Shown here: one piece after another, positions 489-19,650 of the stretch | Position numbering within the stretch: position 1 is the first letter of the stretch | Layout: the number at the start of each line of letters is the position of its first letter | DNA from: an uncultured virus (IMG/VR IMGVR_UViG_2791355488_000009) | Lineage: Duplodnaviria > Heunggongvirae > Uroviricota > Caudoviricetes | IMG/VR virus record: IMGVR_UViG_2791355488_000009 | Reading direction: 5' to 3' (one strand) | Length of the DNA stretch: 20,000 nt | Notes under the pieces: generated by a model | What the model saw: the letters and a program-made list of their open reading frames with translations, nothing else | What the model was told of the DNA's origin: nothing | Databases searched by the model: none | Translations under genes and position numbers: made by a program

Positions 489-499
489 ACACATGTAGA
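489..499 (+). repeat. Left att core (ACACATGTAGA)
   Basis: 10/11 identical direct repeat of 19607-19617; the two copies bracket the ICE genes. Confidence 0.8.
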
Positions 500-670: not shown

Positions 671-720
671 AGATTAAGATTTAAGGGGTACTGTAAAATG
701 GTACTCCTTTTCTCTTGTTC

Positions 721-750
721 AAGGCGTTCAGAAATGAGCGTCTTTTTTCT
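721..750 (+). terminator. Intrinsic terminator at the left end of the ICE
   Basis: AAGGCGTTCA-GAAA-TGAGCGTCTT followed by TTTTCT. Confidence 0.7.
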
Positions 751-1030: not shown

Positions 1031-1345
1031 ATGGAACTGAAATTTGTTATCCCAAACGTAGAAAAGACATTTGGCAGTCTGGAATTTGCCGGAGAAAACA
1101 AAGTGGAACAGCGAAGAATCAACGGAAAAATGACCCTGCTGTCACGCAGCTTTAACCTATACTCGGACATTCAGAGGGCAGACGATATTCTTGTGATTCT
1201 TCCGGCAGAAGCAGGTGAAAAGCATTTTGACTTTGAAGAAAAAGTAAAGTTGCTTAACCCACGTATTACGGCAGAGGGCTATAAAATTGGTACTCGTGGT
1301 TTCACGAATTATATTTTGCACGCTGACGATTTGGTAAAAGCATAA
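1031..1345 (+). CDS. Tn916 Orf23-like protein (YdcP/DUF961 family, HelP-like)
   Basis: 104 aa MELKFVIPNVEKTFGSLEFAGE...GTRGFTNYILHADD resembles Orf23; SD-like AAAGGAAAGG upstream; first gene of the module. Confidence 0.9.
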   Translation: MELKFVIPNVEKTFGSLEFAGENKVEQRRINGKMTLLSRSFNLYSDIQRADDILVILPAEAGEKHFDFEEKVKLLNPRITAEGYKIGTRGFTNYILHADDLVKA

Positions 1346-1365
1346 GGAAAGAGAGGAATTATTCT

Positions 1366-1749
1366 ATGAGATTAGCAAACGGAATTGTAATTGATAAGGA
1401 CGCAACCTTTGGTATGTTAAAGTTTTCTGCTCTCCGTCGTGAGGTTCATATTCAGAATGAGGACGGAACCGTATCAGACGAAATTAAGGAGCGAACCTAT
1501 GATTTGAAATCAAAAGGTCAGGGCTGCATGATTCAGGTCAGTATTCCTGCAACTGTGCCGTTGAAAGAGTTTGATTATAATGCAGAAGTGGAGCTTGTCA
1601 ATCCGGTAGCGGATACGGTGGCGACAGCTACCTTTCAAGGGGCAACTGTGGACTGGTATATCAAAGCAGAGGATATTATCTTGAAAAAGGGTGCTGCTTC
1701 TGCCGGAAATCCGCAGCCGCCGAAAAAGGATATGTCTGCCGGAAAGTAA
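1366..1749 (+). CDS. Tn916 Orf22-like protein (YdcP/DUF961 family)
   Basis: 127 aa MRLANGIVIDKDATFG.LKFSALRREV...ERTYDLKSKGQG; SD GAGGA; synteny. Confidence 0.9.
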   Translation: MRLANGIVIDKDATFGMLKFSALRREVHIQNEDGTVSDEIKERTYDLKSKGQGCMIQVSIPATVPLKEFDYNAEVELVNPVADTVATATFQGATVDWYIKAEDIILKKGAASAGNPQPPKKDMSAGK

Positions 1750-1801
1750 AAGTTCCTATTAAGCAGGAGCTTTCAAAGCAAAGAAAAGGAGTGATTCAGA
1801 C

Positions 1802-3196
1802 ATGAAACAGTCTTTCTTCCGTGGAAAGCGGATTCGCTCCACGGACAAGGAGTTAGTTTTCCATGTTACCCTTGCCGCCCTCCTTCCGGTCTTTCTGCTG
1901 ATTGTTCTGCTGTTTCATGGCAAGGCAATCATGCAGATGGACTGGAAGAACAGCTCTCTTTTGCAGATAAGCAACATCAGTTTCCCTTATCTACTTATCA
2001 GCATGGGCGTGGCAGGCATCATATGTCTGGCATTGGCTGTGCTGTTTTATCATTATCGTCGTGATGATGTGAAACAGCTCTATCACCGTCAAAAACTGGC
2101 GAAAATGATTCTGGAAAACAAGTGGTATGAAGCAGAGCAGGTACAATCTGACGGATTCTTTAAAGACCTATCTTCCAGCCGTACTAAAGAGAAAATTACC
2201 TATTTCCCAAAACTGTACTATCAGCTTCAAAACGGGCTGATTCACATTCGGGTAGAAATTACGTTGGGGAAATATCAAGACCAGCTTTTGCATTTGGAAA
2301 AGAAGCTGGAAAGTGGCTTGTACTGTGAGCTGACCGACAAAGAATTAAAGGATTCCTATGTGGAATATACCCTGCTCTATGATACCATTGCAAACCGGAT
2401 TTTCATAGAAGACGTACAGGCACAGGGCGGCAGGCTCCGATTGATGAAAAATGTGTGGTGGGAGTATGACAAGCTCCCCCATATGCTCATTGCTGGGGGA
2501 ACGGGCGGCGGCAAAACATACTTTATCCTGACACTGGTGGAAGCCCTGCTCCGCACCAATGCCGTACTTTTTATCTTAGACCCGAAGAACGCTGACCTTG
2601 CCGATTTACAAACCGTTATGCCAAATGTCTACTATAAAAAAGAGGATATGCTTGCCTGCATTGATTCGTTCTATGAAGAAATGATGAAGCGCAGCGAAGA
2701 TATGAAGCAGATGGAGGGCTACAAGACAGGTGAAAACTATGCCTACTTAGGACTTCCAGCTCATTTTCTTATCTTTGATGAATATGTTGCGTTTATGGAA
2801 ATGCTGGGAACCAAAGAAAACACTGCTGTTTTGAATAAACTGAAACAGATTGTCATGCTGGGACGGCAGGCAGGCTTTTTTCTCATTCTTGCCTGCCAGC
2901 GTCCAGACGCAAAATATTTAGGGGACGGAATCCGTGACCAGTTTAATTTCCGTGTCGCTTTGGGACGTATGTCAGAAATGGGTTACGGTATGATGTTTGG
3001 GGAAACCGACAAGGACTTTTTCTTAAAGCAGATAAAGGGACGTGGCTATGTAGATACAGGAACTAGCGTCATATCGGAGTTTTACACACCTCTTGTACCA
3101 AAAGGACATGACTTTTTAAAAGAAATAAAAGTTCTGATAGACAGCAGGCAGGCGGCACAGGCGGCGTGCGAAGCGAAAGCCGCAGGTGCAGACTGA
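1802..3196 (+). CDS. FtsK/SpoIIIE-family coupling protein (Orf21/TcpA-like)
   Basis: Two N-terminal hydrophobic segments, Walker A GGTGGGKT, Walker B LIFDE, LGRQAG and QRPD motifs; SD AAGGAG. Confidence 0.93.
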   Translation: MKQSFFRGKRIRSTDKELVFHVTLAALLPVFLLIVLLFHGKAIMQMDWKNSSLLQISNISFPYLLISMGVAGIICLALAVLFYHYRRDDVKQLYHRQKLAKMILENKWYEAEQVQSDGFFKDLSSSRTKEKITYFPKLYYQLQNGLIHIRVEITLGKYQDQLLHLEKKLESGLYCELTDKELKDSYVEYTLLYDTIANRIFIEDVQAQGGRLRLMKNVWWEYDKLPHMLIAGGTGGGKTYFILTLVEALLRTNAVLFILDPKNADLADLQTVMPNVYYKKEDMLACIDSFYEEMMKRSEDMKQMEGYKTGENYAYLGLPAHFLIFDEYVAFMEMLGTKENTAVLNKLKQIVMLGRQAGFFLILACQRPDAKYLGDGIRDQFNFRVALGRMSEMGYGMMFGETDKDFFLKQIKGRGYVDTGTSVISEFYTPLVPKGHDFLKEIKVLIDSRQAAQAACEAKAAGAD

Positions 3197-3203
3197 CTAG
3201 CTG

Positions 3204-3258
3204 GCTGGTGTGGCGTAAGCCACGCCAGCACAGAACCCCCCGTATCTAACAGGGGGGT
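3204..3258 (+). other. oriT/nic region of the MOBT type
   Basis: Hairpin GCTGGTGTGGC-GTAA-GCCACGCCAGC (3204-3229), then ACCCCCC-GTATCTAACA-GGGGGGT (3235-3258) with CTAA in the loop, between coupling protein and relaxase as in Tn916/ICEBs1. Confidence 0.85.
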
Positions 3259-3385
3259 ACAAATCAACAGAAAACAGAATAAAAAAAGGCGAAAATCCTT
3301 TGTGGCATAAGGGTTTTCTATAAAAATGGCGTATGTCGGCTTGGTATGAAAAGTTGACATACGTTTTTTGATGGGAGGGATTTTA

Positions 3386-4588
3386 CTGAATATTAATACA
3401 TGGATACAGGAACTACGGGAAAAACGTTCCGCTTATGGCGTTTCCCAAAGAAGACTTGCGGTAGCTGCCGGAATCACACGCCAGTATTTAAGCGATATGG
3501 AAACTGGAAAGATAGTTCCATCAGAGGAATTGCAAATGTCCATTCTGGAAGCACTGGAACGTTTCAATCCTGATTCTCCGCTGGAACTGCTCTTTGACTA
3601 TGTGCGGATTCGCTTTCCAACGCTGGACGTAAAACACATTGTTCAGGACGTTTTGAAGTTAAAGCTGTCCTATCTGCTCCATCAGGATTATGGTTTTTAT
3701 TCCTATGCAGAGCATTATTCGCTGGGAGATATTTTCGTACTGGTATCCCCCGAACAGGAAAAGGGGGTTCTCTTGGAGCTAAAAGGGCGTGGCTGCCGCC
3801 AGTTTGAAAGCTATCTGCTGGCACAGGAACGAAGCTGGTATGAATTTTTTATGGATTGTCTGGTTGAGGGTGGTGTGATGAAGCGGCTTGACCTTGCCAT
3901 CAATGACAAGGCAGGCATTTTAAATATTCCAAACCTTACGGAAAAGTGCCGAAAAGAAGAATGTATCTCGGTCTTTCGTAGCTTTAAAAGTTACCGCAGC
4001 GGCGAACTGGTACGGCGTGAGGAAAAGGAATGTATGGGAAATACGCTTTATATCGGCTCTTTGCAAAGTGAAGTGTACTTTTGCATTTATGAAAAGGATT
4101 ATGAGCAGTACAAGAAAAACGATATTCCCATAGAAGAAGCAGAAATTAAAAACCGCTTTGAAATCCGGCTGAAAAATGAGCGTGCCTATCATGCTTTATG
4201 TGACCTGCTTTTTTATGACAATCCAGAACGCACCGCTTTCAAGATTATCAACCGATATGTCCGGTTCGTGGACAGGGATAATACAAAGCCTCGTTCCGAC
4301 TGGCAGCTCAACGAAGAATGGGCATGGTTTATCGGGGAGAATCGGGAAAGTATGAAGCTGACCACGAAGCCGGAGCCATATTCCTTTCAGCGTACCTTAA
4401 ACTGGCTTTCCCATCAGGTAGCCCCCACGTTAAAGGTAGCCATGAAAATAGATGAAATCAATCATACGCAGGTGGTAAAGGACATTATCACCCATGCAAA
4501 ATTAACGGAACGGCACAGAACCATTTTAAAACAGCAAGCCGCTTCTGTAGAAGAATTGATTGTCAAGGAAACAGATATTGCCCTGTAA
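3386..4588 (+). CDS. mobT: MOBT relaxase (Orf20-like; XRE HTH plus Rep_trans domain)
   Basis: N-terminal HTH (LREKRSAYGVSQRRLAVAAGITRQYLSDMETG); Rep_trans motifs RLDLAIND, TLYIGS, CIYEKDYEQ, NRFEIRL. Start uncertain: CTG 3386 follows GGAGG at 3374-3378, while the ORF track starts at 3368. Confidence 0.92.
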   Translation: MNINTWIQELREKRSAYGVSQRRLAVAAGITRQYLSDMETGKIVPSEELQMSILEALERFNPDSPLELLFDYVRIRFPTLDVKHIVQDVLKLKLSYLLHQDYGFYSYAEHYSLGDIFVLVSPEQEKGVLLELKGRGCRQFESYLLAQERSWYEFFMDCLVEGGVMKRLDLAINDKAGILNIPNLTEKCRKEECISVFRSFKSYRSGELVRREEKECMGNTLYIGSLQSEVYFCIYEKDYEQYKKNDIPIEEAEIKNRFEIRLKNERAYHALCDLLFYDNPERTAFKIINRYVRFVDRDNTKPRSDWQLNEEWAWFIGENRESMKLTTKPEPYSFQRTLNWLSHQVAPTLKVAMKIDEINHTQVVKDIITHAKLTERHRTILKQQAASVEELIVKETDIAL

Positions 4589-4615
4589 TTCGGGCAAAAA
4601 GAAAGGAGCAATTTT

Positions 4616-4837
4616 ATGAATTTCGGACAGAACTTATACAACTGGTTTTTAACCAATGCACAATCGATGGTCTTGCTGGCAATCGTAGTCATTGGATTGT
4701 ACTTAGGCTTTAAGCGTGAATTTTCCAAACTGATTGGATTTTTGGTGATTGCCTTAATTGCGGTTGGGTTGGTATTCAATGCTGCCGGCGTAAAAGATAT
4801 TTTGCTGGAACTGTTCAATAAGATTATCGGAGCATAA
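4616..4837 (+). CDS. Tn916 Orf19-like small membrane protein
   Basis: 73 aa MNFGQNLYNWFL... with two hydrophobic segments; SD AAAGGAG; synteny. Confidence 0.9.
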   Translation: MNFGQNLYNWFLTNAQSMVLLAIVVIGLYLGFKREFSKLIGFLVIALIAVGLVFNAAGVKDILLELFNKIIGA

Positions 4838-4886
4838 TGTAAAACAACCCAATCATTTTCAAGCAGAAAGGACGTGAGAATTTCAC

Positions 4887-5387
4887 ATGGAAATGCAGGT
4901 TTATATCTCGAACCTCGGTAAATACAATGAGGGTGAATTGGTCGGTGCATGGTTCACCCCTCCCATTGACCCCGAAGATGTAAAAGAAAAAATCGGGCTG
5001 AACAGTGAATATGAGGAATACGCTATTCATGATTATGAGCTGCCGTTTGATATTAACGAGTATACAACCATTGAGGACATTAACCGCCTGTGTGCTTTGG
5101 CGGAAGAACTTTCGGGTACACCGATTGAATCCGAAATGAAAGAGATTCAGCAAGCCTTTTTTAGCAGCTTTGAAGAAATGGCAGAACACGCAGACGACAT
5201 TATCTGCTATCCCAATTGTGATGATATGGCAGACGTGGCAAGATACTTTATTGAAGAAACGGGAGCCTTGGGCGAAGTGCCTGCCAGTCTTCAAAACTAT
5301 ATTGACTATGAAGCCTATGGGCGTGACTTGGAGCTGGACGGCAACTTTCTAGTCACGGCTCATGGCGTATTTGAATATGCAGGATAG
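4887..5387 (+). CDS. ardA: Antirestriction protein ArdA (Orf18-like)
   Basis: Very acidic 166 aa protein; motifs VYISNLGKYNEGELVGAW, EEYAIHDYE, YIDYEAYGRDL. Confidence 0.93.
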   Translation: MEMQVYISNLGKYNEGELVGAWFTPPIDPEDVKEKIGLNSEYEEYAIHDYELPFDINEYTTIEDINRLCALAEELSGTPIESEMKEIQQAFFSSFEEMAEHADDIICYPNCDDMADVARYFIEETGALGEVPASLQNYIDYEAYGRDLELDGNFLVTAHGVFEYAG

Positions 5388-5406
5388 CAACATAACGTAA
5401 CTTTAT

Positions 5407-5437
5407 GGGCAGTTCTTTTTTAGGGACTGCCCTTTTT
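5407..5437 (+). terminator. Terminator-like hairpin after ardA, inside the transfer operon
   Basis: GGGCAGTTC...GGACTGCCC followed by TTTTT. Confidence 0.6.
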
Positions 5438-5470
5438 CATGGAAATTTTGAAAAGAAAGGACAGGTTTTT

Positions 5471-5863
5471 ATGAAGAAAATACGAAGCTATACCAGTATC
5501 TGGTCGGTGGAAAAAGTGCTTTACTCCATCAATGACTTTAAGCTGCCGTTTCCTATCACCTTTACCCAAATGACGTGGTTTGTGGTGTCACTGTTTCTGG
5601 TGATACTCTTTGGCAGCTTGCCGCCGCTATCTCTGATAGACGGGGCTTTTCTCAAATACTTTGGGATTCCGCTTGCCATTACCTGGTTCATGAGCCAGAA
5701 AACCTTTGACGGAAAGAAGCCTTACGGTTTTCTAAAGTCAGTCGTGACCTATCTGGCACGCCCCAAAATCACCTATGCCGGAAAGCCTGTGAAGCTGCAA
5801 ACAAAGCGGCATACCGAAGCCATCACAGCAGTTAGGAGTGAAGTCTATGACGTATCCAATTAA
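5471..5863 (+). CDS. Orf17/TcpE-like conjugal transfer membrane protein
   Basis: MKKIRSYTSIWSVEKVLYSINDFKLPFP...KTFDGKKPYGFL; ATG 5471 after AAAGGA is preferred over 5405. Confidence 0.88.
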   Translation: MKKIRSYTSIWSVEKVLYSINDFKLPFPITFTQMTWFVVSLFLVILFGSLPPLSLIDGAFLKYFGIPLAITWFMSQKTFDGKKPYGFLKSVVTYLARPKITYAGKPVKLQTKRHTEAITAVRSEVYDVSN

Positions 5864-8300
5864 ATATATTGAAAACAATCTGGTCTGGAACCATGACGGG
5901 GAGTGCTATGCCTACTATGAGCTGATTCCCTACAATTACTCGTTCCTAAGTCCAGAACAGAAATTTCAGGTACATGATTCCTTTCGTCAGCTCATTGCAC
6001 AAAACCGTGACGGGAAAATTCATGCCCTGCAAATCAGCACGGAATCCAGCATACGAGCGGCGCAGGAACGCTCCAAACAGGAAGTGACAGGCAGATTAAA
6101 GGAAATTGCCTATGAAAAGATTGACCAACAGACAGAAGCCCTTGTTTCCATGATTGGAGAAAATCAGGTGGATTACCGCTTTTTTCTTGGGTTTAAGCTG
6201 CTTTTAAATGAGCAGGAAGTCACGGTGAAAAATATTGGAAAAGACATGGCAAATACTTTTTCTGATTTTGTTCATGAGGTGAACCACAAGCTCATGGGAG
6301 ATTTTGTTTCCATGAGCAATGATGAAATTGGACGTTTTTCTAAAATGGAAAAACTGCTGGAAAATAAGATTTCCCGACGCTTTAAAATCCGACGCTTAAA
6401 TAAAAATGATTTTGGCTATCTCATGGAGCATTTACACGGACAGTCCGGCACAGCCTATGAGGATTACGAATATTCTCTGCCAAAGAAAAAGCTGAAAGGA
6501 AAAACGCTGGTAAAGCGGTATGACCTGATTCAGCCGACCCGTTGCCTGATAGAAGAAAATCAGCGGTATTTGAAGATTGAGCAGGAGGATTCTACCACCT
6601 ATGCCGCTTATTTTACGATTAACTCCATTGTAGGGGAACTGGATTTTCCCTCTTCTGAAATCTTTTATTATCAGCAACAGCAATTTACCTTTCCCATTGA
6701 CACCAGCATGAATGTGGAGATTGTGGCAAACAAAAAAGCCCTTACCACTGTCCGCAATAAGAAAAAGGAACTGAAAGACCTTGATAATCACGCATGGGAA
6801 AGTGACAGCGAAACCAGCAACAATGTGATGGAAGCCTTGGATACAGTCAATGAACTGGAAACCAATTTAGACCAGTCAAAGGAAGCCATGTATAAGCTCT
6901 CTTATGTGATAAGGGTATCGGCTCCTGATTTGGAAGAACTGAAACGCCGCTGCAATGAGGTGAAAGATTTCTACGACGATTTAAGCGTCAAGCTGGTGCG
7001 TCCCTTTGGAGATATGCTGGGGCTACACGGCGAATTTTTTCCTGCCAGCAAACGGTACATGAATGATTATATCCAGTATGTGACCTCTGATTTTCTGGCA
7101 GGCTTGGGCTTTGGAGCTACACAAATGTTAGGTGAAAATGAGGGTATCTACGTAGGCTACAGTCTGGATACCGGAAGAAATGTGTACCTAAAGCCTGCCC
7201 TTGCCAGTCAGGGTGTCAAAGGCTCTGTTACCAATGCCCTTGCTGCCGCTTTTGTAGGCTCGCTGGGCGGTGGTAAATCCTTTTCCAATAACATGATTGT
7301 GTACTACTCTGTTCTGTTTGGAGCGCAGGCAGTCATTGTAGACCCAAAGGCAGAACGTGGGAACTGGAAAGAAACCCTGCCGGAGATTGCAGAAGAAATC
7401 AATATTGTCAATCTTACCAGCGAAGACAGGAACAAAGGATTGCTTGACCCTTACGTCATTATGAAAAATCCAAAGGATTCGGAAAGCCTAGCCATTGATA
7501 TTTTAACCTTTTTAACGGGAATTTCATCCCGTGACGGCGAACGCTTTCCTGTCCTTAGAAAAGCCATACGTGCGGTAACAAACAGCGAAGAACGGGGATT
7601 GTTAAAAGTCATTGAGGAATTGAGGGTAGAAAATACACCTGTCAGTACCAGCATTGCTGACCATATCGAGAGCTTTACGGACTATGATTTTGCACAGCTT
7701 TTATTTTCCAATGGTGAAGTCACACAGTCCATCAGTTTGGAAAAGCAGCTGAATATTATACAGGTAGCGGATTTGGTGTTGCCGGACAAGGAAACCGGAT
7801 TTGAGGAATATACGACAATGGAGCTGCTTTCCGTTGCCATGCTTATTGTTATCAGTACCTTTGCTCTGGATTTTATCCATACTGACCGGAGCATTTTTAA
7901 GATTGTAGACCTTGACGAAGCATGGAGCTTTTTACAGGTAGCGCAGGGAAAAACACTGTCTATGAAACTGGTGCGTGCCGGACGTGCCATGAATGCAGGG
8001 GTGTATTTTGTGACCCAAAACACCGACGATTTGTTGGACGAGAAGCTGAAGAACAATCTGGGGCTTAAATTTGCATTCCGTTCCACGGATATCAATGAGA
8101 TAAAGAAGACACTGACTTTTTTTGGCGTGGACGCAGAGGACGAAAATAACCAGAAACGATTACGTAACTTGGAAAACGGTCAGTGCCTGATTAGTGATTT
8201 ATATGGTCGTGTGGGTGTGATTCAGTTTCACCCGATATTTGAAGATTTGCTTCATGCCTTTGACACCCGTCCTCCGGTCAGAAAAGAGGTGGAATCATGA
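5847..8300 (+). CDS. VirB4-like conjugation ATPase (Orf16/TcpF-like)
   Basis: Walker A GSLGGGKS, VIVDPKAER, Walker B VDLDEAW, RAGRAMN; ATG 5847 after AGGAG. Confidence 0.93.
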   Translation: MTYPIKYIENNLVWNHDGECYAYYELIPYNYSFLSPEQKFQVHDSFRQLIAQNRDGKIHALQISTESSIRAAQERSKQEVTGRLKEIAYEKIDQQTEALVSMIGENQVDYRFFLGFKLLLNEQEVTVKNIGKDMANTFSDFVHEVNHKLMGDFVSMSNDEIGRFSKMEKLLENKISRRFKIRRLNKNDFGYLMEHLHGQSGTAYEDYEYSLPKKKLKGKTLVKRYDLIQPTRCLIEENQRYLKIEQEDSTTYAAYFTINSIVGELDFPSSEIFYYQQQQFTFPIDTSMNVEIVANKKALTTVRNKKKELKDLDNHAWESDSETSNNVMEALDTVNELETNLDQSKEAMYKLSYVIRVSAPDLEELKRRCNEVKDFYDDLSVKLVRPFGDMLGLHGEFFPASKRYMNDYIQYVTSDFLAGLGFGATQMLGENEGIYVGYSLDTGRNVYLKPALASQGVKGSVTNALAAAFVGSLGGGKSFSNNMIVYYSVLFGAQAVIVDPKAERGNWKETLPEIAEEINIVNLTSEDRNKGLLDPYVIMKNPKDSESLAIDILTFLTGISSRDGERFPVLRKAIRAVTNSEERGLLKVIEELRVENTPVSTSIADHIESFTDYDFAQLLFSNGEVTQSISLEKQLNIIQVADLVLPDKETGFEEYTTMELLSVAMLIVISTFALDFIHTDRSIFKIVDLDEAWSFLQVAQGKTLSMKLVRAGRAMNAGVYFVTQNTDDLLDEKLKNNLGLKFAFRSTDINEIKKTLTFFGVDAEDENNQKRLRNLENGQCLISDLYGRVGVIQFHPIFEDLLHAFDTRPPVRKEVES

Positions 8301-10612
8301 ATCAGCTTGTAACAGGCAGTGAAAAAAGAAAATGGAGCTGGCAGCGTACCGGAAAAGTGGTGATGACCGTATTTTTGATACTGGTAATCGCCCTTTTTCT
8401 TGTATCGGCATTGGGAACGGTGGCATACGCTGCTGGACTGGTGGACGATACGGTGAAAGCCGGAAATGAGTACAGCCAATACCCATTAGATAATTACCAG
8501 CTTGATTTTTATGTGGATAGCGGCTGGGACTGGCTCCCGTGGAACTGGCTGGACGGCATTGGAAAGCAGGTCATGTACGGGCTTTACGCTATTACCAATT
8601 TTATCTGGACTATCAGTCTGTATCTTTCCAATGCAACGGGCTATCTGGTGCAGGAAGCCTATTCACTGGATTTTATCTCCGATACGGCAGATTCCATTGG
8701 AAAGAACATACAGACCATTGCCGGAGTGAGCACAAGCGGACTTTCCCCTGACGGCTTTTATAGCGGATTTTTGCTGATTCTCATTTTAATCGTGGGAATT
8801 TACGTTGCCTATACGGGACTTATCAAACGGGAAACCACCAAAGCCATTCATGCGGTGATGAATTTTGTAGTAGTGTTTGTATTGTCGGCGGCGTTTATTG
8901 CCTATGCACCGGACTATATTGGAAAAATCAATGACTTTTCCTCGGACATCAGCAACGCCAGCTTATCCTTAGGAACGAAAATTGTCATGCCGGATTCGGA
9001 AAGTAAGGGAAAAGACAGTGTTGACCTGATTCGTGATAGCCTGTTTTCCATACAGGTAAAACAGCCGTGGCTTTTATTACAGTTCGATAATTCAGACAGT
9101 GAAGCAATCGGAGAAGAACGGATTGACAGCCTGCTCTCTACCAGCCCTGACGCAAACAACGGTAAAGACAGAGAAGAACTTGTAAAAGAAGAAATTGAAG
9201 AGAAAGACAATACAAATCTCACTATCACAAAGACCATCAATCGCTTAGGTATGGTATTTTTCCTGTTCCTCTTTAATATCGGGATTTCGGTTTTTGTATT
9301 TTTACTGACAGGGATTCTGATTTTCTCACAGGTGCTTTTTATTATTTATGCCATGTTCTTGCCTGTCAGTTTCTTGTTGAGTATGATACCCACCTTTGAG
9401 GGAATGACCAAACGTGCCATTACAAAGCTGTTTAATACCATTCTCACAAGAGCAGGAATCACGCTGATTATTACCACGGCGTTTAGTATTTCCACCATGC
9501 TCTATACCCTGTCTGTGGGATATCCGTTCTTTCTGGTGGCATTTTTGCAGATAGTGACCTTTGCCGGAATCTATTTTAAGCTGGGGGATTTAATGAGTAT
9601 GTTCTCCCTGCAAAGCGGAGATTCCCAAAGTGTAGGCAGACAGATCATGAGAAGACCCCGTATGCTCATGCAAGCTCATATGCACCGCTTGCAGCATAAG
9701 CTAGGGCGTTCCGTGGCAGCAATGGGAAAAAATCAAAATACAGGCAAAAAGAACGGAACAAGTGCAGGTACTTCCGCTTCAAGAGCAACGCAGGCAGACC
9801 ATACCAGACCGGAAAATGAAGCTGCCAGCAGACCGGAGCAATCCTCTCTTGGGAAACGTGCCGGAGAAGTGGCAGGAAAAGTGATGGATACCAAAGACCG
9901 GATTCGGGATACCGCAGGTCAGCTAAAGGAGCAGGCAAAGGATTTACCTGTCAATGCCAGATATGCCCTTTATCATGGCAGAACGCAGGTGTCGGAGGGC
10001 ATACAGGATTTTACCTCCGGCGTGACACAGACCAGAGCTGTCAGAAAGGAAGAACGGCAGGAAAAAGCCAAAAATCGGCGAAAAACCATTGCACAGCGTC
10101 GGTCAGAAATGGAACAGGCAAGGCAGCAAACAGCTTCCAATATAGAAAAAACACCAAATGTATCTAAAGTGGGCGGCTCGGTTCATGAAAGACCTGCTAC
10201 TGCCCCAGCCGGACAATCCCGTCCGATTGTTGACAGTCCGGCACAAGTGACCAGACCTACCGTACAGCCGGAACCTGCCAGAACTACTGCCCAAAGACCT
10301 GTTGTTTCTGCTAAGGGAGAACAACAAAGGCTCGATAGAGTACCCGACCATCAGACTGCACGACCAGAACAGCAGGCAGAAAGACAGATTTCTTCTGAAA
10401 GGCAGTCTACACAAAGAACTGTTTCTTTCAGTCAGAGGGAACGTGCCTTTCCGGTAGAACGACAAACGCAATCTGGCAGCTCCCCTGCTCCTGTTCAAAA
10501 ACGGGTATTACGGCAATCCGCCCCAAAACGCAGATTTACCGTGAAACGGGAACAGAAAATAAAGGGTTCTGCCATTCCTCCGACCAGCAGAAAGGAGGAA
10601 CCGAAACTATGA
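8297..10612 (+). CDS. Orf15-like polytopic conjugation membrane protein (VirB6-like)
   Basis: YPLDNYQLDFYVD..WDWLPWNW motif, many hydrophobic segments, long hydrophilic C-tail; ATGA overlaps at both ends. Confidence 0.9.
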   Translation: MNQLVTGSEKRKWSWQRTGKVVMTVFLILVIALFLVSALGTVAYAAGLVDDTVKAGNEYSQYPLDNYQLDFYVDSGWDWLPWNWLDGIGKQVMYGLYAITNFIWTISLYLSNATGYLVQEAYSLDFISDTADSIGKNIQTIAGVSTSGLSPDGFYSGFLLILILIVGIYVAYTGLIKRETTKAIHAVMNFVVVFVLSAAFIAYAPDYIGKINDFSSDISNASLSLGTKIVMPDSESKGKDSVDLIRDSLFSIQVKQPWLLLQFDNSDSEAIGEERIDSLLSTSPDANNGKDREELVKEEIEEKDNTNLTITKTINRLGMVFFLFLFNIGISVFVFLLTGILIFSQVLFIIYAMFLPVSFLLSMIPTFEGMTKRAITKLFNTILTRAGITLIITTAFSISTMLYTLSVGYPFFLVAFLQIVTFAGIYFKLGDLMSMFSLQSGDSQSVGRQIMRRPRMLMQAHMHRLQHKLGRSVAAMGKNQNTGKKNGTSAGTSASRATQADHTRPENEAASRPEQSSLGKRAGEVAGKVMDTKDRIRDTAGQLKEQAKDLPVNARYALYHGRTQVSEGIQDFTSGVTQTRAVRKEERQEKAKNRRKTIAQRRSEMEQARQQTASNIEKTPNVSKVGGSVHERPATAPAGQSRPIVDSPAQVTRPTVQPEPARTTAQRPVVSAKGEQQRLDRVPDHQTARPEQQAERQISSERQSTQRTVSFSQRERAFPVERQTQSGSSPAPVQKRVLRQSAPKRRFTVKREQKIKGSAIPPTSRKEEPKL

Positions 10613-11607
10613 GAGGAAAGCCTATCCTGATTGCCTTTTCCGGTGTGTTCCTCTTAATTTTCTCGCTTCTTTTGCTGGTAGTGATTCTTTTTTCGGAGGA
10701 AGAAGACGGAGGACATGACCTGTCATACGGGGGTGCAAACGTATCAGCGGAGGTGCTGGCACACAAGCCCATGTTAGAGAAGTACGCCAGAGAATACGGC
10801 ATAGAAGATTATATCAATGTGCTACTCGCAATCATACAGGTAGAATCCGGCGGTACATTGGAAGACGTTATGCAGTCCTCGGAATCTATGGGCTTGCCGC
10901 CAAACACGCTAAGTGCAGAGGAATCCATCAAACAGGGGTGCAAGTATTTTGCTTCCCTGCTGGAATCCGCAAAAGCAAAGGGCTGTGACCTAAATTCCGT
11001 TATCCAGTCCTATAACTATGGTGGCGGCTTTCTTGACTACGTGGCAAAGCGTGGGAAGAAATACACGTTCCAGCTTGCGGAGAGTTTTTCAAAAACACAG
11101 TCTGACGGTGTAAAGGTGACTTATTCCAATCCTATCGCTGTTCAGAAAAACGGCGGCTGGCGGTACGATTACGGAAATATGTTCTATGTATTGCTGGTAT
11201 CAGAATACCTGACAATGCCGCAGTTTGATGATAAAACGGTACAGGCTGTCATGACAGAAGCCCTAAAATATGAGGGCTGGCGGTATGTATACGGCGGTGC
11301 TTCTCCGACCACTTCCTTTGATTGCAGTGGTCTGGTTCAGTGGTGCTACGGGAAAGCTGGGATTTCCCTGCCACGAACCGCACAGGAGCAATACGACGTG
11401 ACCCAGAATATCCCTTTATCCGAAGCAAAGGCTGGGGATTTGGTCTTTTTTCAAGGCACCTATGACGCAGGTACTTACATTACCCATGTGGGGATATATC
11501 AGGGAAACAACCGTATGTATCATGCCGGTGACCCAATCGGCTATACCGCTTTAACCAGTTCTTATTGGCAGCAACATTTGGTTGGTGCAGGAAGAATCAA
11601 ACAATAG
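10609..11607 (+). CDS. Orf14-like peptidoglycan hydrolase (lysozyme-like plus NlpC/P60)
   Basis: LAIIQVESGG...DVMQSSES...QSYNYG; FDCSGLVQWCY...LPRTAQEQY...GDLVFF...HVGIY. Confidence 0.93.
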   Translation: MRGKPILIAFSGVFLLIFSLLLLVVILFSEEEDGGHDLSYGGANVSAEVLAHKPMLEKYAREYGIEDYINVLLAIIQVESGGTLEDVMQSSESMGLPPNTLSAEESIKQGCKYFASLLESAKAKGCDLNSVIQSYNYGGGFLDYVAKRGKKYTFQLAESFSKTQSDGVKVTYSNPIAVQKNGGWRYDYGNMFYVLLVSEYLTMPQFDDKTVQAVMTEALKYEGWRYVYGGASPTTSFDCSGLVQWCYGKAGISLPRTAQEQYDVTQNIPLSEAKAGDLVFFQGTYDAGTYITHVGIYQGNNRMYHAGDPIGYTALTSSYWQQHLVGAGRIKQ

Positions 11608-11623
11608 AAAGGACGATATTACT

Positions 11624-12529
11624 ATGAATTTAAGGAAAAAACAAGGACAACCGGAGCAGGTAAAAGAGAAAAAGCTCCATGTTTACAAAGTAAATACCCA
11701 CAAGAAAACGGTCATAGCCTTGTGGGTACTTTTGGCAGTTAGTTTCTGTTTTGCGGTCTATAAGAATTTCACCGCAATCGACATACACACCGTTCACGAA
11801 ACAAAGGTAGTAGAGGAAAAAGTTGTGGATACCCATAAGATAGAAAACTTTGTGGAGGATTTCGCCAAAGTTTATTATTCTTGGGAACAGATGGCAGCTT
11901 CCCTTGATAACCGGAATGACGCTATCAAGCATTACCTGACCGCAGAATTACAGGCACTTAATACCGACACTATCCGAAAGGATATTCCGGTTTCCTCCTC
12001 TGTCAGTGATGTGCAGATTTGGTCTGTGTCACAGGACGGAGAAAACCAGTTTAAAGTGGCTTATACGATAGACCAGCTTATTACAGAGGGAGAAAACAAA
12101 AAAACGGTACGCTCTGCTTATGAAGTAGTGGTTTATGTAGACAGCTCTGGAAATATGATTATCACAAAAAATCCCACTATTTGCAGTGTACCCGAAAAAT
12201 CCGGCTATGAACCAAAAGCAAAAGAAAGTGACGGAACGGTAGACGCAGCAACAACCAATGAAATCAATGAGTTTTTAACTACATTTTTCAAGCTCTATCC
12301 TACCGCTACAGCAAAAGAGCTGTCTTATTATGTGAATGACGGCGTATTAAAGCCAATCGGAAAAGACTATGTGTTTTCAGCGCTGATAAATCCTATCTAT
12401 AACCGAAGCGGTAATCAGGTGATGGTTTCGCTGGCGGTCAAATATCTGGATAAGCAGACAAAGGCAACGCAAATATCTCAATTTGATTTGGTGCTGGAAA
12501 AGAACGAAAACTGGAAGATTGTAAAATAA
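11624..12529 (+). CDS. Orf13/TcpC-like conjugal transfer protein (VirB8-like)
   Basis: One N-terminal TM segment, YKNFTAID, FLTTFFKLYPTA..ELSYY; ATG 11624 after AAAGGA. Confidence 0.9.
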   Translation: MNLRKKQGQPEQVKEKKLHVYKVNTHKKTVIALWVLLAVSFCFAVYKNFTAIDIHTVHETKVVEEKVVDTHKIENFVEDFAKVYYSWEQMAASLDNRNDAIKHYLTAELQALNTDTIRKDIPVSSSVSDVQIWSVSQDGENQFKVAYTIDQLITEGENKKTVRSAYEVVVYVDSSGNMIITKNPTICSVPEKSGYEPKAKESDGTVDAATTNEINEFLTTFFKLYPTATAKELSYYVNDGVLKPIGKDYVFSALINPIYNRSGNQVMVSLAVKYLDKQTKATQISQFDLVLEKNENWKIVK

Positions 12530-14387: not shown

Positions 14388-15794
14388 ATGGAAATTTCAT
14401 ATGAGAGAAAAATAGATTTAAAGTTAATATTATCAATTATAGCAACGGGACTGATGTCCTTTACAGGCGTAGTTGTTGAAACAGCTATGAATGTTACTTT
14501 TCCAACATTAATGGAACAATTTAACGTAGGTACCTCAACAGTACAATGGGTAACTACAGGCTATTTGCTAGTTTTAGCTATAATTATTCCAGCTTCTTCA
14601 TTTTTAAAGAAACGATTTATGACTAAACATCTATTCCTGTTTGCTAATATTATGTTTATAATTGGTACGGTTCTTGCTGCGACAGCCCCATCCTTTAGTT
14701 TATTATTAATAGGCAGGATACTGCAAGGAATAGGAACAGGAATAGCTTTACCGCTAATGTATAATATTGTGCTAGAACAAACACCTTTAAATAAATTAGG
14801 ACTAATGATGGGAATTGCTACATTAATTATTGCTGTAGCACCTGCCGCAGGTCCTTCATTAGGGGGATTTATTGTATATTCATTCAATTGGCGGATGATA
14901 TTTATTGTTTTGTTGCCAATATTGGTACTTTCTTTTTTTATAGGATTGTTTTCCATTCGCCAAGTAAGACCAACTGAAAAGGTGACATTTGATTGGTTTG
15001 AATATGTATTTTTAGCCATAGGCTTTACTTGTTTTATTTTTGCTGTAAGTTTCGCTGGAATAATGGGCTGGGGAAGCTTTCAGGTTATTGGATTATTTGT
15101 ACTTAGTATTATTTCTCTAGTTGTGTTTTACAGGCATTCTAAAAAAAATGATGCACCAATTATTAATCTTCATGTGCTACAGTATAAATCATTTTCATTC
15201 AGCGTTGTGGCGTTAATGCTAATTCAATTTATTTGTTTGGGGTTAGGATTTTTAATTCCGAACTATGCACAGATTGTATCCGGTAAAAATGCGTTAGTCG
15301 CAGGCTGTATTTTATTACCAGGCTGTATTCTGGGAGCCATATTAACACCTATTAGCGGACGTTTGTTAGACAAGTTTGGCGCAAAGAAGCCAATTTTAAT
15401 TGGTATCACATTTATTACGATATCAACCTTATTTTATAGTATCTTTGCTCTAAATATGACTATATTACTTTTTGTTCTTTTTTATATATTATTTGGAATT
15501 GGACAAAGTTTTTCAACAGGAAATGTAATGACAAATGGTTTGAAGCAGTTACCGGAAAAAATGAATTTAGATGGTAATGCAGTTTTTAATACTATACAGC
15601 AGTTGGCAGGAGCAATTGGAACATCGGTTGTATCAACTATTGTATCGACCGCACAGGTAAAATTACCAGATGATTTGGCTGCGGCTACAATGCTAGGAAG
15701 CCGTAATGCATTCATATTACTATTGATACTGGCATTTATAGCATTTTTTTGTTTATTAAGAGTTCTTTGTTATATTTCAAGCAAGAAAATATAA
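14388..15794 (+). CDS. MFS efflux transporter, DHA2 (LmrB/EmrB-like) family
   Basis: 468 aa, roughly 14 hydrophobic segments; ETAMNVTFP, VQWVTTGYLL, LLIGRILQGIG, APAAGPSLGG, GRLLDKFG. Confidence 0.92.
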   Translation: MEISYERKIDLKLILSIIATGLMSFTGVVVETAMNVTFPTLMEQFNVGTSTVQWVTTGYLLVLAIIIPASSFLKKRFMTKHLFLFANIMFIIGTVLAATAPSFSLLLIGRILQGIGTGIALPLMYNIVLEQTPLNKLGLMMGIATLIIAVAPAAGPSLGGFIVYSFNWRMIFIVLLPILVLSFFIGLFSIRQVRPTEKVTFDWFEYVFLAIGFTCFIFAVSFAGIMGWGSFQVIGLFVLSIISLVVFYRHSKKNDAPIINLHVLQYKSFSFSVVALMLIQFICLGLGFLIPNYAQIVSGKNALVAGCILLPGCILGAILTPISGRLLDKFGAKKPILIGITFITISTLFYSIFALNMTILLFVLFYILFGIGQSFSTGNVMTNGLKQLPEKMNLDGNAVFNTIQQLAGAIGTSVVSTIVSTAQVKLPDDLAAATMLGSRNAFILLLILAFIAFFCLLRVLCYISSKKI

Positions 15795-16129
15795 AGTATA
15801 TACAACTATGAGTAAGGAGGCGGAAGTCTGTATCCTTTGGTCTGTTATACGAGATAGATAATCTAATAATGTTGTATATTAATGTAATAAAGCTGATTAC
15901 TTTATAGTTAGTAATATAATCTATCCGACATATGAGAACTAGCATAATACAGCCCCAAAAGTAGACTGTATACAGTAACCTACGCGGATAGTTCAAATGT
16001 TTCCACATGCATAGTTGTATTGAAAAAAATGTTAGATAAGTTTAATAAAAAACATATTGCCAAAAGGGGAATTAAAAACCGTATATTGGTATTATGATTT
16101 TTTTGCTTCAAAATCATATTTTATCACCA

Positions 16130-16165
16130 GACGACGGTTTAAATGAGCCGCCGTCTTTTGTTTTT
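16130..16165 (+). terminator. Intrinsic terminator-like hairpin upstream of the regulatory region
   Basis: AGACGACGGTTT...GAGCCGCCGTCT followed by TTTGTTTTT. Confidence 0.55.
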
Positions 16166-16238
16166 GATATAGAATCTACGGGAAAATATAATAGATTTAA
16201 TAATTGAGGTTCATGGCGGCGAAAAGGAGGTAGCCGTC

Positions 16239-16310
16239 ATGAACACTGCTATTTTTCAATACGTAACTGTTTCTGATGAAACGGTTCCCAAAAGTATTTT
16301 TCGCAAATAG
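16239..16310 (+). CDS. 23 aa small ORF (MNTAIFQYVTVSDETVPKSIFRK), putative leader peptide
   Basis: Strong SD AAGGAGGT upstream; the ATG lies in the 3' arm of hairpin 16209-16244. Confidence 0.35.
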   Translation: MNTAIFQYVTVSDETVPKSIFRK

Positions 16311-16537
16311 AGAAAAACAATTATCTATATGTTTATTTATAATACATAAGAAAAATAAAGAAGGTACACAGACAGAGATATTACTCTGTTCGTGTGCCTT
16401 TTTTGATTCTCAAACAAATCTCATTAATTCTTCTGAAAAACGCAACAAATATCACCTCTCCGGTGAGAGTCAGTGCGAAAGGGGGCAAGAGAAACCGAAG
16501 TTTCTCTCCCTGCTGGCTGGAAGGGGGGTGATATTCT

Positions 16538-17008
16538 ATGAAGCCATCTTCTTTCAATTCCATTCCGGTAAAAGAACTAACACAGCAGGTCAACCGTGAT
16601 TTTCAGACAACGATTCAGTACCAATTTGATTGTTTGGCAAGAAAGGTCATGATTCGCACACAAAGCAACTGCCGCCGTACTGCCGGAAGAAAAATCCGTA
16701 AAGAATGCCCGTTTTCCGAATTGCCGGAAAAGGAACTGAACCGTCTGCAAACGTTAGATACCTACCATCTGGACGGAAAGTATTATCTGATTCTGAAATT
16801 CCGTGTGGAAGTCGGGAATGAAGCGGTTGCAAATGCTTTGGACAACCTGCCGGAGGAAAAGCGGAACATTCTTCTAATGTTCTACTTTCTTGAAATGTCT
16901 GACGCTGAAATAGCGTTGGAGCTTGGTAAAGACCGCAGTACTATTTACCGCAGTCGTACCAGCGCATTAGCTGCCTTAAAAAAGCGATTGGAGGTTGAAG
17001 ACCTGTGA
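16538..17008 (+). CDS. Orf7-like sigma-70 region 4 domain regulator
   Basis: MKPSSF...FQTTI..QFD start; LPEEKRNILLMFYFLEMSDAEIALELGKDRSTIYRSRTSAL HTH. Confidence 0.88.
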   Translation: MKPSSFNSIPVKELTQQVNRDFQTTIQYQFDCLARKVMIRTQSNCRRTAGRKIRKECPFSELPEKELNRLQTLDTYHLDGKYYLILKFRVEVGNEAVANALDNLPEEKRNILLMFYFLEMSDAEIALELGKDRSTIYRSRTSALAALKKRLEVEDL

Positions 17009-17232
17009 AGAAAGAAAAAAATCTCCTGCCTTATACCACAATTAAAGCCGCTACAGAGAGTGACGCTATAGCGATACAAAAAATTTTGAAGCATTACGAG
17101 GGTTACATAGCGAAGCTGTCTACAAAGATTCTTTCCGACGAGTACGGAAAAGAATACTGCATTGTGGATAAGGACGTACAGGAGCAGCTTACAACAGCAT
17201 TGTTACAAATGATACTGGATTTTGAGATTTAA
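17005..17232 (+). CDS. Orf8-like helix-turn-helix protein
   Basis: 75 aa LLPYTTIKAA..DAIAIQKILKHYEGYIAKLS...DEYG; GTGA overlap with orf7; SD GGAGG. Confidence 0.88.
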   Translation: MKKEKNLLPYTTIKAATESDAIAIQKILKHYEGYIAKLSTKILSDEYGKEYCIVDKDVQEQLTTALLQMILDFEI

Positions 17233-17340
17233 GAGAAAGGGCGTGTGATTTTCATTTTCTCATGCGCCCTACTCTCTTCTAACTGCCAATCTATCAAAGC
17301 ATACTGTCATACGGTGTGTTTTGACAGGCTGACAAGCCAC

Positions 17341-17630
17341 TGTTCCTTGAAAACTGAATAAAGCGATTGAATACATTTTGATAGGGAAAGAGCCGACGGG
17401 CTGACACGCCATGACCTGAAAGGAGGGACAAAACGAGCGATTCATGTCAGTGTTCCGTATGTAGCCTTTGGCAAGGTTGCCGCCATGACTTCCCTATCGT
17501 AATAATGATACTCCCGTACAGCCATAGTCCGAGCGTGAAAAAACCGTCGCAGGCAATGGGTACGGCTGTATGAGAACCATGCAGGGGTGAGATTCCCGTG
17601 AGCTTTGCCAGAGCTGTTCAAGTTGCTTAT
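17341..17630 (+). ncRNA. Structured non-coding region with a boxA-like 5' motif, candidate cis-acting antiterminator RNA
   Basis: Several long helices and a CGCCATGAC direct repeat; lies between orf8 and the recombination genes. Confidence 0.5.
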
Positions 17631-17658
17631 AAATTATCAATGAATGGGAGGGGTGATT

Positions 17659-17805
17659 ATGGATAGAAATTTAATTCGATACAGTATGCAGATTGCCATG
17701 TTAAAACAATTACTCGCCCGAAACATGATTTCCGAAAAGGAATATGAAACCGTAAAGAAACGTCTCATGAGAGATTATAAAGTAGTTTCTGATATAACAG
17801 CTTGA
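17659..17805 (+). CDS. 48 aa SHOCT-like protein upstream of the recombinase, candidate directionality factor
   Basis: SD GGAGG, then MDRNLIRYSMQIAMLKQLLARNMISEKEYETVKKRLMRDYKVVSDITA*; LKQLL...ISEKEY..VKKRL fits a SHOCT-type pattern; below the ORF-track cutoff. Confidence 0.75.
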   Translation: MDRNLIRYSMQIAMLKQLLARNMISEKEYETVKKRLMRDYKVVSDITA

Positions 17806-17808
17806 TTT

Positions 17809-17837
17809 TTGCGATTTTTAGTATTAATATATATACT
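17809..17837 (+). promoter_or_regulatory. Putative sigma-A promoter of the recombinase
   Basis: TTGCGA-N17-TATACT, followed by SD AAGGAGG and ATG 17869. Confidence 0.5.
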
Positions 17838-17868
17838 ATAAAGGGAACACAAAAAGGAGGCGCGTTAT

Positions 17869-19650
17869 ATGCAGGAAGTTGAAGTAATAAAAGCGAAAAA
17901 TGTTTCATCAAAGCAGACACGGGGAAATTTTCTTGAACGGCAGCGTGTGGCGGCATATTGCAGAGTTAGTACAGACAGTGAAGACCAGTTGAACAGCTAT
18001 AAATCACAGAAAGCATACTATACAGATTTAATTAAGAAAAATAAGGAATGGGTTTTTGTTGATATATATGCTGATGAAGCGATTACCGGAACGCAGGTTA
18101 CAAAGCGTGAAGAATTTCAGCGAATGATAAATGATTGTATGAATGGTGATATTGATATGGTCATTACAAAGTCCATTTCCAGATTTGCAAGAAATACGCT
18201 GGATACCTTAAAATATGTCCGTATGTTGAAAGAAAAGAATATTGCAGTTTATTTTGAAGATGAAAAAATCAATACCCTAACAATGGACGGGGAACTGCTT
18301 TTAGTGGTACTTAGCTCCGTAGCACAGCAGGAAGTAGAAAATATCTCTGCGAATGTGAAAAAGGGATTGAAAATGAAGATGAAGCGTGGTGAGCTAGTAG
18401 GCTTTCAAGGTTGTCTGGGGTATGACTATAATAAAGAAGATAAAACCATCACAGTCAATGAAAAAGAAGCTGAAATTGTTCGTTACATATTCAATCGCTA
18501 TATTGAAGGGGCTGGTGGTTCTGTAGTAGGACAGGAATTAGAAAATCTTGGATACGTAACGAAATACGGTAGTTCTACATGGGCACCCTCTACTATTCTT
18601 GGCATTATAAAAAACGAGAAATATAAAGGTGATTTACTGCTTGGGAAGACCTTCACGGTTGACCCAATTTCCAAACGACGATTAGATAATATGGGAGAAG
18701 AAGACCAATTCTATATCCGTGAACATCATGAACCAATTATCAGTGAAGAAGTTTTTGAAAAAGCACAGGAAATCTTGAATCGTAGAAATAAAAACAGAGG
18801 GAAAATCGGTGATGGCAAACGAGAAAAATATAGCCGCAAATACTCTTTTAGCTGTATGCTGGAATGTGGATTTTGTGGCAGCACATTGTCTAGGCGTAAC
18901 TGGCACAGCGGTTCCGAATACAACAAGGTAATCTGGCAATGTGTAGCTGCAACAAAAAAGGGAAAGAAATTTTGTCCTGACAGCAAGGGGATTCCTGAAC
19001 AAGCCATTGAGGAAGCTTTTCTCGAAAGTTACCGTCTGTTATGTGATGATAACAAGGACATATTAGATGAATTTTTGCAAAGAATGGACGATACATTAAG
19101 CAGCAGCACTGTGAATAAGCAGCTATCTAAATTGGATAAAGAAATTGAATCCATTGAAAGAAAGAAAAGTAAACTGGTGGATATGCGGTTGGAAGATACC
19201 ATTGATAAAGTTTCCTATGAAGCGAAGTATTCTTCTTTTACAGAGAAGCAAGAACAATTATTAAAAGATAGAGAGAAGTTACAGGAAACGGCTGCAAATG
19301 AAAAGGATATAAAACGCCGTTTACGGGATTTTAAAAAGACGTTGGAGCAAAACGAAGTCTTATCTGAATTTGACCGCTATGTTTTTGAAAGTATTGTTGA
19401 AAAAGTTATCGTAGGGGGTTATGATGAAGATGGAAATAAAGACCCAGCTCAACTTACTTTTGTATATAAAACTGGATTGAAAAATAACGTAGATGGCAGC
19501 CGATTTAAGCCGAAAAGGAAAAATGCAAGGGGTAAACATAGAACTGCTGAATTGTGTTCCGATGATAAGAACGAGGTTCAGTCTTTGTCTTCCCATAGTA
19601 GTTCCGACACATGTGGAAGCAGTGGCAGTACTAACCTTGAAGTTGTCTAA
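17869..19650 (+). CDS. Large serine recombinase (resolvase, recombinase and Zn-ribbon domains)
   Basis: AAYCRVST catalytic motif, TKSISRFARN, LGYDY, IIKNEKYKGD, HEPIISEEVF, CGFCG Zn ribbon, coiled coil; reads through the right att core. Confidence 0.95.
   Translation: MQEVEVIKAKNVSSKQTRGNFLERQRVAAYCRVSTDSEDQLNSYKSQKAYYTDLIKKNKEWVFVDIYADEAITGTQVTKREEFQRMINDCMNGDIDMVITKSISRFARNTLDTLKYVRMLKEKNIAVYFEDEKINTLTMDGELLLVVLSSVAQQEVENISANVKKGLKMKMKRGELVGFQGCLGYDYNKEDKTITVNEKEAEIVRYIFNRYIEGAGGSVVGQELENLGYVTKYGSSTWAPSTILGIIKNEKYKGDLLLGKTFTVDPISKRRLDNMGEEDQFYIREHHEPIISEEVFEKAQEILNRRNKNRGKIGDGKREKYSRKYSFSCMLECGFCGSTLSRRNWHSGSEYNKVIWQCVAATKKGKKFCPDSKGIPEQAIEEAFLESYRLLCDDNKDILDEFLQRMDDTLSSSTVNKQLSKLDKEIESIERKKSKLVDMRLEDTIDKVSYEAKYSSFTEKQEQLLKDREKLQETAANEKDIKRRLRDFKKTLEQNEVLSEFDRYVFESIVEKVIVGGYDEDGNKDPAQLTFVYKTGLKNNVDGSRFKPKRKNARGKHRTAELCSDDKNEVQSLSSHSSSDTCGSSGSTNLEVV
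19607..19617 (+). repeat. Right att core (ACACATGTGGA)
   Basis: Direct repeat of 489-499 inside the 3' end of the recombinase gene. Confidence 0.8.

Follow-up and report, generated by a model that had tools for sequence, protein, structure and literature searches.

A probable canT antiterminator RNA with a covarying pseudoknotted fold and a conserved boxA-like motif in a Tn916-type integrative conjugative element

The 20,000-nt stretch of DNA analysed here (the window) contains a complete Tn916-type integrative conjugative element of ~19 kb with a serine recombinase, and its plus strand encodes a structured RNA that, judged by its sequence relationships, is very probably the canT antiterminator of this Tn916-family element. 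Comparison with ~100 homologues revealed a covarying fold of ~270 nt with two kink-turn (k-turn) signatures, a loop-loop pseudoknot and a four-way junction. This fold, the link between canT and an extended pemK RNA motif, and a conserved boxA were not encountered in the papers searched; antitermination by canT itself was already known. That the present copy also acts as an antiterminator is strongly suggested by its orthology and position, the covarying fold and the conservation of boxA. A literature search from which most subscription papers were absent found canT linked to neither pemK, boxA nor k-turns, and the accessible portion of the main text of the canT study (PMC11658703) contains no comparative structure, no boxA, no Rfam and no covariation.

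In Tn916, canT is a processive antiterminator that acts in cis and in one orientation, is independent of element proteins and is required for transfer (PMC11658703, Wirachman and Grossman 2024; this paper and the others below are cited from the portions accessible to us). Trans complementation of canT fails, and canT mutants excise normally and lose expression of distal genes. A 452-bp canT fragment was active in reporters on five sets of terminators, and sub-fragments of 400, 373, 349, 291, 341, 290 and 232 bp showed 123, 49, 56, 7, 85, 10 and 0.6% activity, respectively (PMC11658703). Two published results count against the reading proposed here: a 291-nt fragment with the delta-162 and S3 region was inactive (7%), and the S3 change had no effect within a 400-bp fragment (PMC11658703). 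The authors left the structure of canT uninterpreted and, in the portion of the paper at hand, report that some related elements contain nothing that they recognised as similar to canT.

In the window, positions 17295-17633 align over 345 columns with the spacer that separates orf8 from xis in Tn925/Tn916, at 79% identity, and a BLAST search of 16900-17900 against plasmids returned this noncoding stretch as its sole match (79% to Tn925/Tn916). Along +126..+412 of the published Tn916 region, 231 of 290 columns are identical, and the similarity stops at about +412; the active 452-bp fragment (from +126, in the +126..+577 region) starts at 17347 here, and the essential segment of delta-162 maps to 17450-17608 with 134 of its 162 bases identical. 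The site altered by the canT(S3) null allele is kept as ATA at 17502-17504 (plus strand, placed by alignment to Tn916), where it forms a conserved 2-nt bulge and one pair of helix P2a, and in held-out rows, most of which were picked by this very motif, its positions are A in 80/80, T or C in 79/80 and A in 78/80. A reading of the DNA from its letters alone (the sequence-only reading) had called this a canT-like RNA, which turned out to be an understatement: it is a direct sequence orthologue in the same position, and the reading is further supported by the left-end and post-ardA terminators. The RNA had been placed from 17341 onwards; a motif does lie there, but the conserved region begins ~45 nt upstream, at 17295. 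The fragment data could be arranged by size into a map with 5' ends at +120/147/171/229 and 3' ends at +519/460 that fits 7/7 sizes, and by hand into a second one with 5' ends at +126/185 and varying 3' ends that fits equally well, so that neither was used as evidence; one arithmetically possible map would make the whole modelled RNA insufficient. The Tn916 region was present as contigs in 18 RNA runs; two raw-read runs gave 0 reads and two contig runs showed flat depth.

The gene context is that of Tn916, with the RNA lying co-oriented between orf7-orf8 and the recombination genes. Upstream are an orf7-like sigma70 region-4 regulator (16538..17008, plus strand; Pfam Sigma70_r4_2) and an orf8-like HTH_16 protein (17005..17232, plus strand; Pfam HTH_16, E 5.8e-21); downstream are a small protein with a SHOCT domain, located where Tn916 has xis (17659..17805, plus strand; Pfam SHOCT_2), and a large serine recombinase (17869..19650, plus strand; Pfam Resolvase, Recombinase and Zn_ribbon_recom). 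The equivalents of orf23 to orf13 for DNA processing and conjugation (1031..12529, plus strand; by Pfam and 72-76% DNA identity to Tn925 on pCF10) are the presumed target of read-through, and the oriT at 3236..3257 (plus strand) is identical to the 22-mer removed in Tn916 delta-oriT. We infer that two copies of the 8-bp core ACACATGT, the only ones in the 20-kb window, are attL (489..496) and attR (19607..19614, both on the plus strand), and the right flank resembles a second genome place from ~19610. Besides 79% identity and the position after orf8, the element shares with Tn916 the S3 site, the places of terminators at the left end and after orf18, and the oriT 22-mer. It differs in carrying the SHOCT protein and serine recombinase instead of xis/int and a LysR regulator with an MFS transporter instead of tet(M); no orf9-like ORF was seen, and the terminator sequences are not alike.

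Predicted terminator-like hairpins are again arranged as in Tn916, which has T1 at the left end and T2 after orf18 (PMC11658703). Two of them stand in tandem at 683..744, ahead of the first transfer gene (-13.7 and -12.7 kcal/mol; the T1 analogue by position), the first (683-709) 194 nt inside attL and the second from 721, and another follows ardA (orf18) at 5407..5432 (the T2 analogue by position), all on the plus strand. The terminators at 721 and 5407 that the sequence-only reading listed were both found as predicted hairpins, but its list omits 683-709 and a hairpin in the oriT-relaxase interval (3328..3365, plus strand). In the excised circle, the first terminator would be reached 2459 nt past boxA and the operon end after 14305 nt. 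A promoter-like site near consensus (11/12 matches) lies at 16164-16192.

Several further features of the element deserve mention. No orf9-like repressor ORF is listed ahead of orf7 in 15794-16538, where regulation may differ from Tn916, and the cargo at 12961-15794, LysR and a divergent MFS transporter where Tn916 has tet(M), is low in GC (~29-34%). A strong hairpin at 17238-17270 directly follows the orf8 stop and precedes a pyrimidine run; Tn916 also has a hairpin there. In the left arm, just ahead of the terminators, GTGAGGGG at 574-590 is possibly an Orf7-dependent promoter and resembles motifs upstream of boxA in some homologues; a purine motif of the Orf7 type, picked by eye, is close upstream of boxA in just 16 of 80 rows. 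Both att cores (489-530 and 19607-19654) translate as THVE peptides, resembling what is encoded at the 3' end of methyltransferase genes of the rumA type. On contig C5, the element is nested with a prophage-like region and has more serine recombinases upstream.

Homologues were collected with a pattern search that did not include boxA and gave at least 107 viral and at least 120 genome stretches with at least 181 distinct cores. Four of 29 seed candidates were dropped for want of an ATAC anchor, and model R1 and an unfitted MAFFT alignment were built from 25 sequences. Clustering left out 28 of 181 cores without the T-loop anchor, of which 21 were later searched and all matched model R1; among the matches listed, the model covers 79 of 79 held-out loci in full length. 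Pfam was run on the neighbouring genes after near-duplicates and short second ORFs had been taken out by hand, which left 55 of 83 ORFs upstream and 61 of 131 downstream. Upstream, 28 of 55 are orf8- or orf7-like regulators (15 HTH_16 and 13 sigma70 region 4), and downstream the homologues precede unrelated mobile-element genes, comprising serine recombinases (14), PemK (11), tyrosine integrases (7), excisionase-like genes (4) and DUF6870 (4) among 61. The RNA thereby appears in elements beyond the reach of BLAST, such as a vanB element and loci upstream of pemK, parA and DUF6870 genes. In the vanB-carrying element (L004:2857-3129), a full-length match of 211 bits lies between an orf8-like gene and an excisionase. 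On an Enterococcus plasmid (L003:3020-3291), Tn916-like orf7/orf8 are joined to a right end of the tndX type, and the RNA is present as a diverged copy. One locus (L149) has the RNA as two tandem copies at 2399-2663 and 2983-3249.

The single sequence does not fold more stably than expected by chance: z is -0.36, and 31 of 100 shuffles were equally good. Homologues were therefore needed. An 89-pair model of the RNA body (17362..17627, plus strand), closed by P1 (17362-17373/17615-17627) and matched by R1, was drawn by eye from the present sequence and its nearest homologues and counted on the unfitted alignment of 25 sequences. On this alignment, 80.7% of cells are paired and 67 pairs show double changes, and none of 500 shuffles scored as high, a statistic that, like every shuffle comparison here, is inflated because the homologues are related; slid controls reached 35-42%. 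The 5' domain (17374..17507, plus strand) comprises P2 (17374-17388/17490-17507), P3 (17397-17406/17445-17457), a variable hairpin and the P5 hairpin (17461-17480). The 3' domain (17502..17601, plus strand), a four-way junction that coincides with the Rfam family RF02913, contains P7 (17514-17535/17545-17565), P8 (17566-17584) and a hairpin at 17585-17597 that we take to be T-loop-like. Helices of the 3' domain are 92-100% paired, and the weak parts are P3a (42%), P9 (51%) and inner P2, for which misalignment is partly responsible. Among 80 held-out matches aligned with the model, 86.8% of cells are paired, an alignment that leans towards the model. Two pairs that are otherwise invariant alternate between G-U and A-U, which suggests that the plus strand is the RNA.

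All motifs and helices named in the sequence-only reading are present where it had placed them, its 13-bp crossing helix including three G-U pairs, and as a set its helices are 66% paired. Covariation, the absence of which was to count against that reading, is evident as compensatory changes on the unfitted 25-sequence alignment, where its helices 17380-17388/17490-17498 and CTGACA/TGTCAG (17401-17406/17445-17450) both covary. TACAGCC/GGCTGTA (17517-17523/17564-17570) had to be given up, one of its pairs being broken in 21 of 25 sequences and another in 11 of 25; the rival register CCGTAC/GTACGG belongs to a helix that is 94% paired. Of the crossing helix (17466-17478/17601-17613), a core of ~5 bp (17468-17472/17607-17611) is kept and 86% paired, but the extension is 58% paired.

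The crossing is a short loop-loop (kissing) pseudoknot in which the loop of P5 (17468-17474) pairs with that of the P9 hairpin (17602-17614); overall it spans 17468..17611 on the plus strand. All five pairs of its core show double changes. The pseudoknot pairs lie outside model R1, yet in held-out sequences cognate loops out-paired shuffled partners at three redundancy cut-offs (12.1-12.2 versus 10.1-10.4, including 12.2 versus 10.4 ± 0.3), with 0 of 1000 shuffles as good. The CGCCATGAC repeats at 17407 and 17481 that had been pointed out are indeed there and are explained as the bulged strand common to two k-turn signatures of the 5' domain, one at 17407-17414/17435-17439 and the other at 17390-17393/17482-17488 (both plus strand). 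A simple k-turn consists of a C helix, a 3-nt bulge and tandem G.A/A.G pairs (PMC4316175), and both sites are standard by this definition, with GA opposite GA. The first was part of the search pattern, so that independent evidence comes only from the 14 loci found through Rfam, where CGC-NNN-GA is present in 14/14 and the partner GAGCG, by inspection, in 12/14. At the second, the bulge is followed by G in 72/80 and A in 80/80, the partner A is kept in 79/80 and the 2n G is variable. From these signatures, both sites are likely to adopt the kinked geometry. The host genome encodes two L7Ae-family proteins and NusB.

An Rfam search, which the sequence-only reading had proposed, found one family above threshold, the pemK RNA motif (RF02913), at 17502-17601 with 67.8 bits against a gathering cut-off of 34.8, over the whole model (positions 1-61). 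This is the sole Rfam match of the 20-kb window at threshold and begins exactly at the S3 site; at permissive E-values, 17200-17700 yielded pemK alone with four other matches due to chance, and a search for tRNA and tmRNA found none. When 151 genomes were sampled from the phylum, RF02913 matched 12 of them, the present one counted. In 14 of 14 matches from other genomes, the similarity reaches 160-240 nt upstream to boxA and the k-turn signature, so that the pemK motif seems to represent the canT RNA's 3' domain; the Rfam model spans 61 positions only, compared with an RNA body of ~270 nt in the canT family. Rfam types pemK as Cis-reg (RF02913), and the accessible portions of the main text of PMC5737381, PMC11109978 and PMC8632094 mention neither pemK nor Tn916.

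Upstream of P1 lies the single-stranded boxA-like motif TGTTCCTTGAAAACTGAATA (17341..17360, plus strand), consisting of a core (17342-17353) and the ACTGAATA extension. Its likeness to rrn boxA, already noted from the letters, is real and family-wide. boxA was absent from all search patterns and models, and a strict boxA pattern was found within 90 nt upstream of 80 of 105 homologues and missed by 25, with 0 of 105 in downstream controls and a genome background of 0.002 per scanned interval; boxA is also present in 14 of 14 loci found through pemK alone. The profile agrees with 29 of 31 rrn leaders examined, with the unforced G at 100% versus 97%, but departs from them at position 11, where 97% of rrn leaders have A and 54% of these RNAs have C. 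Several host contig ends carry the same extended motif and are presumably collapsed rrn leaders; another boxA-like site with a long extension lies off the contig ends of genome G000 (contig C16, ~45607, minus strand) without such an RNA after it. B. subtilis NusB binds the rrn boxA AUGAUCUUUGAAA, and a small hairpin stands directly before boxA in B. subtilis rrn leaders (PMC13753749). The same arrangement is predicted here, with two hairpins 5' of boxA (17294-17324 and 17327-17338, within 17294..17338, plus strand), the Tn916 similarity starting at 17295 and the shorter hairpin (17327-17338) directly preceding the motif. Pairing of boxA within its own RNA gave no advantage to the own partner (-10.5 versus -10.6 ± 0.2 kcal/mol, 80 rows), and no partner was found within the 20-kb window, where the one candidate, at 14595, is poor with 5 mismatches. 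In a subfamily (L005, L026, L027, L157, L238 and others), an extra hairpin with a conserved AAGATAACG-type loop separates boxA from P1 in a boxA-boxB-like arrangement.

Mapped onto the present sequence, the active 452-bp fragment of Tn916 (PMC11658703) lacks the first six bases of boxA, including the conserved G and C. It thus starts mid-boxA, and an intact boxA is therefore probably not needed for short-range read-through. It is about an even bet that boxA would load host NusB-S10 in an accessory role, for long-range processivity or protection from Rho, and not for the core activity; this takes the analogy of conAn2, which over short range is active by itself but at a distance needs help.

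In the mechanism that we propose, a transcript from the orf7 promoter region would run through orf7-orf8 and fold co-transcriptionally into the ~270-nt RNA, the two k-turns bending its 5' arm and the four-way junction forming its 3' (pemK) domain. The loop-loop pseudoknot would lock both halves once the last hairpin has formed, and the folded RNA would remain on RNA polymerase and render it resistant to terminators. Excision would join attR to attL, allowing the modified polymerase to cross attP and read through the left-end (~2.5 kb past boxA) and internal terminators up to the end of the transfer operon (~14 kb). In the integrated state, the same terminators may shield the element from host promoters.

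Other explanations were weighed against this proposal. NusB-S10 loading by boxA could itself be the core of the mechanism, in effect copying the rrn or lambda nut complex with the large fold in place of boxB and N, and boxA indeed sits unpaired at a narrow distance range 5' of P1, matches the rrn profile and has a hairpin predicted on at least one side in 58 of 63 cases (counted without a shuffle control). We consider this unlikely given that a fragment starting mid-boxA is active on five terminator sets (PMC11658703); the vector sequence upstream of the 452-bp insert is not given there, so that boxA may have been reconstituted in part. Quite improbable is a local cis-regulator of the next gene (attenuator, riboswitch or translational operator) instead of a processive antiterminator: the Cis-reg type in Rfam and the varying downstream genes (PemK 11, serine recombinase 14 and tyrosine integrase 7 of 61) were counted in its favour, but terminator-like sites are listed nowhere inside or just after the RNA, and the Tn916 mutants excise normally and lose distal expression (PMC11658703).

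Highly improbable, too, is that the RNA is cut out of the transcript to work on its own, as a ribonucleoprotein or a catalytic RNA for which antitermination is secondary. Its size would suit this reading, as would the pseudoknot, the T-loop-like hairpin, both k-turn signatures and the closing stem P1. The boxA extension also resembles a strand that forms the rRNA processing stalk. Against such an RNA stands that the RNA body contains no strand that would be a cognate partner for boxA and that canT acts in cis only, uncomplemented in trans (PMC11658703). We give next to no credence to conservation stemming from an antisense gene for an orf5-like protein (a minus-strand ORF of 59 codons, 17442-17621) or from a sigma-A promoter with TTGAAA (or TTGACA) as a -35-like hexamer, since changes in the helices are compensatory and orf5 start and nonsense mutants conjugate normally (PMC11658703). 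The antisense ORF was rejected with longest open minus-strand stretches of 33 to 88 codons across 25 homologues, and the promoter with a -10 hexamer absent 16-18 nt after TTGAHA in 60 of 64.

With the canT antiterminator as the preferred reading, comparison with other systems sets its features in context. The rrn leader boxA (NusB-S10-NusG-NusA) shares the core G-N-W-C-Y-TTGA-N-AA, the extension ACTRAAYA and, often, a neighbouring hairpin. In the canT family, by contrast, boxA is followed by the ~270-nt folded domain and C is common at position 11, intrinsic terminators are targeted, and boxA appears dispensable at short range. The conAn2 RNA of pLS20 is likewise a noncoding cis RNA of similar size with a long terminal stem, placed near the start of the conjugation transcript after a small protein gene; it works alone at short range and needs ConAn1 at distance (PMC8191782). 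Model R1 had no match in pLS20 (1-50000) or pCF10 (1-22000), so a link to the pCF10 conjugation leader was rejected, as was homology to conAn2, around which a search with filters off gave 8.6 bits at best, from hairpin fragments. EAR of the Bacillus eps operon and HK022 put are cis-acting RNA antiterminators as well (PMC11658703, PMC8191782), described as much smaller than conAn2 (PMC8191782); at threshold, the present RNA matches no Rfam family besides pemK.

Tentatively, and somewhat short of an even chance, canT, pemK and many RNAs of Bacillota mobile elements might form a single, widespread antiterminator family of large RNAs that joins an rrn-boxA mimic (NusB-S10) to a double-k-turn, pseudoknotted scaffold. 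The scaffold may use host L7Ae-like proteins, which could make the RNA an element-encoded but protein-free mimic of rRNA antitermination, and the family might target intrinsic terminators and gate conjugation in Tn916-, Tn1549- and serine-recombinase elements. In the comparative fold, the change in the canT(S3) null allele falls on a bulge that is conserved, and the link to canT gives the pemK motif a probable function. Together, fold and boxA make the open mechanism of canT testable, with exact mutation sites named. A requirement for Nus factors or k-turn-binding proteins of the host, should there be one, would matter for the range of hosts open to these elements and may offer a way to block their spread.
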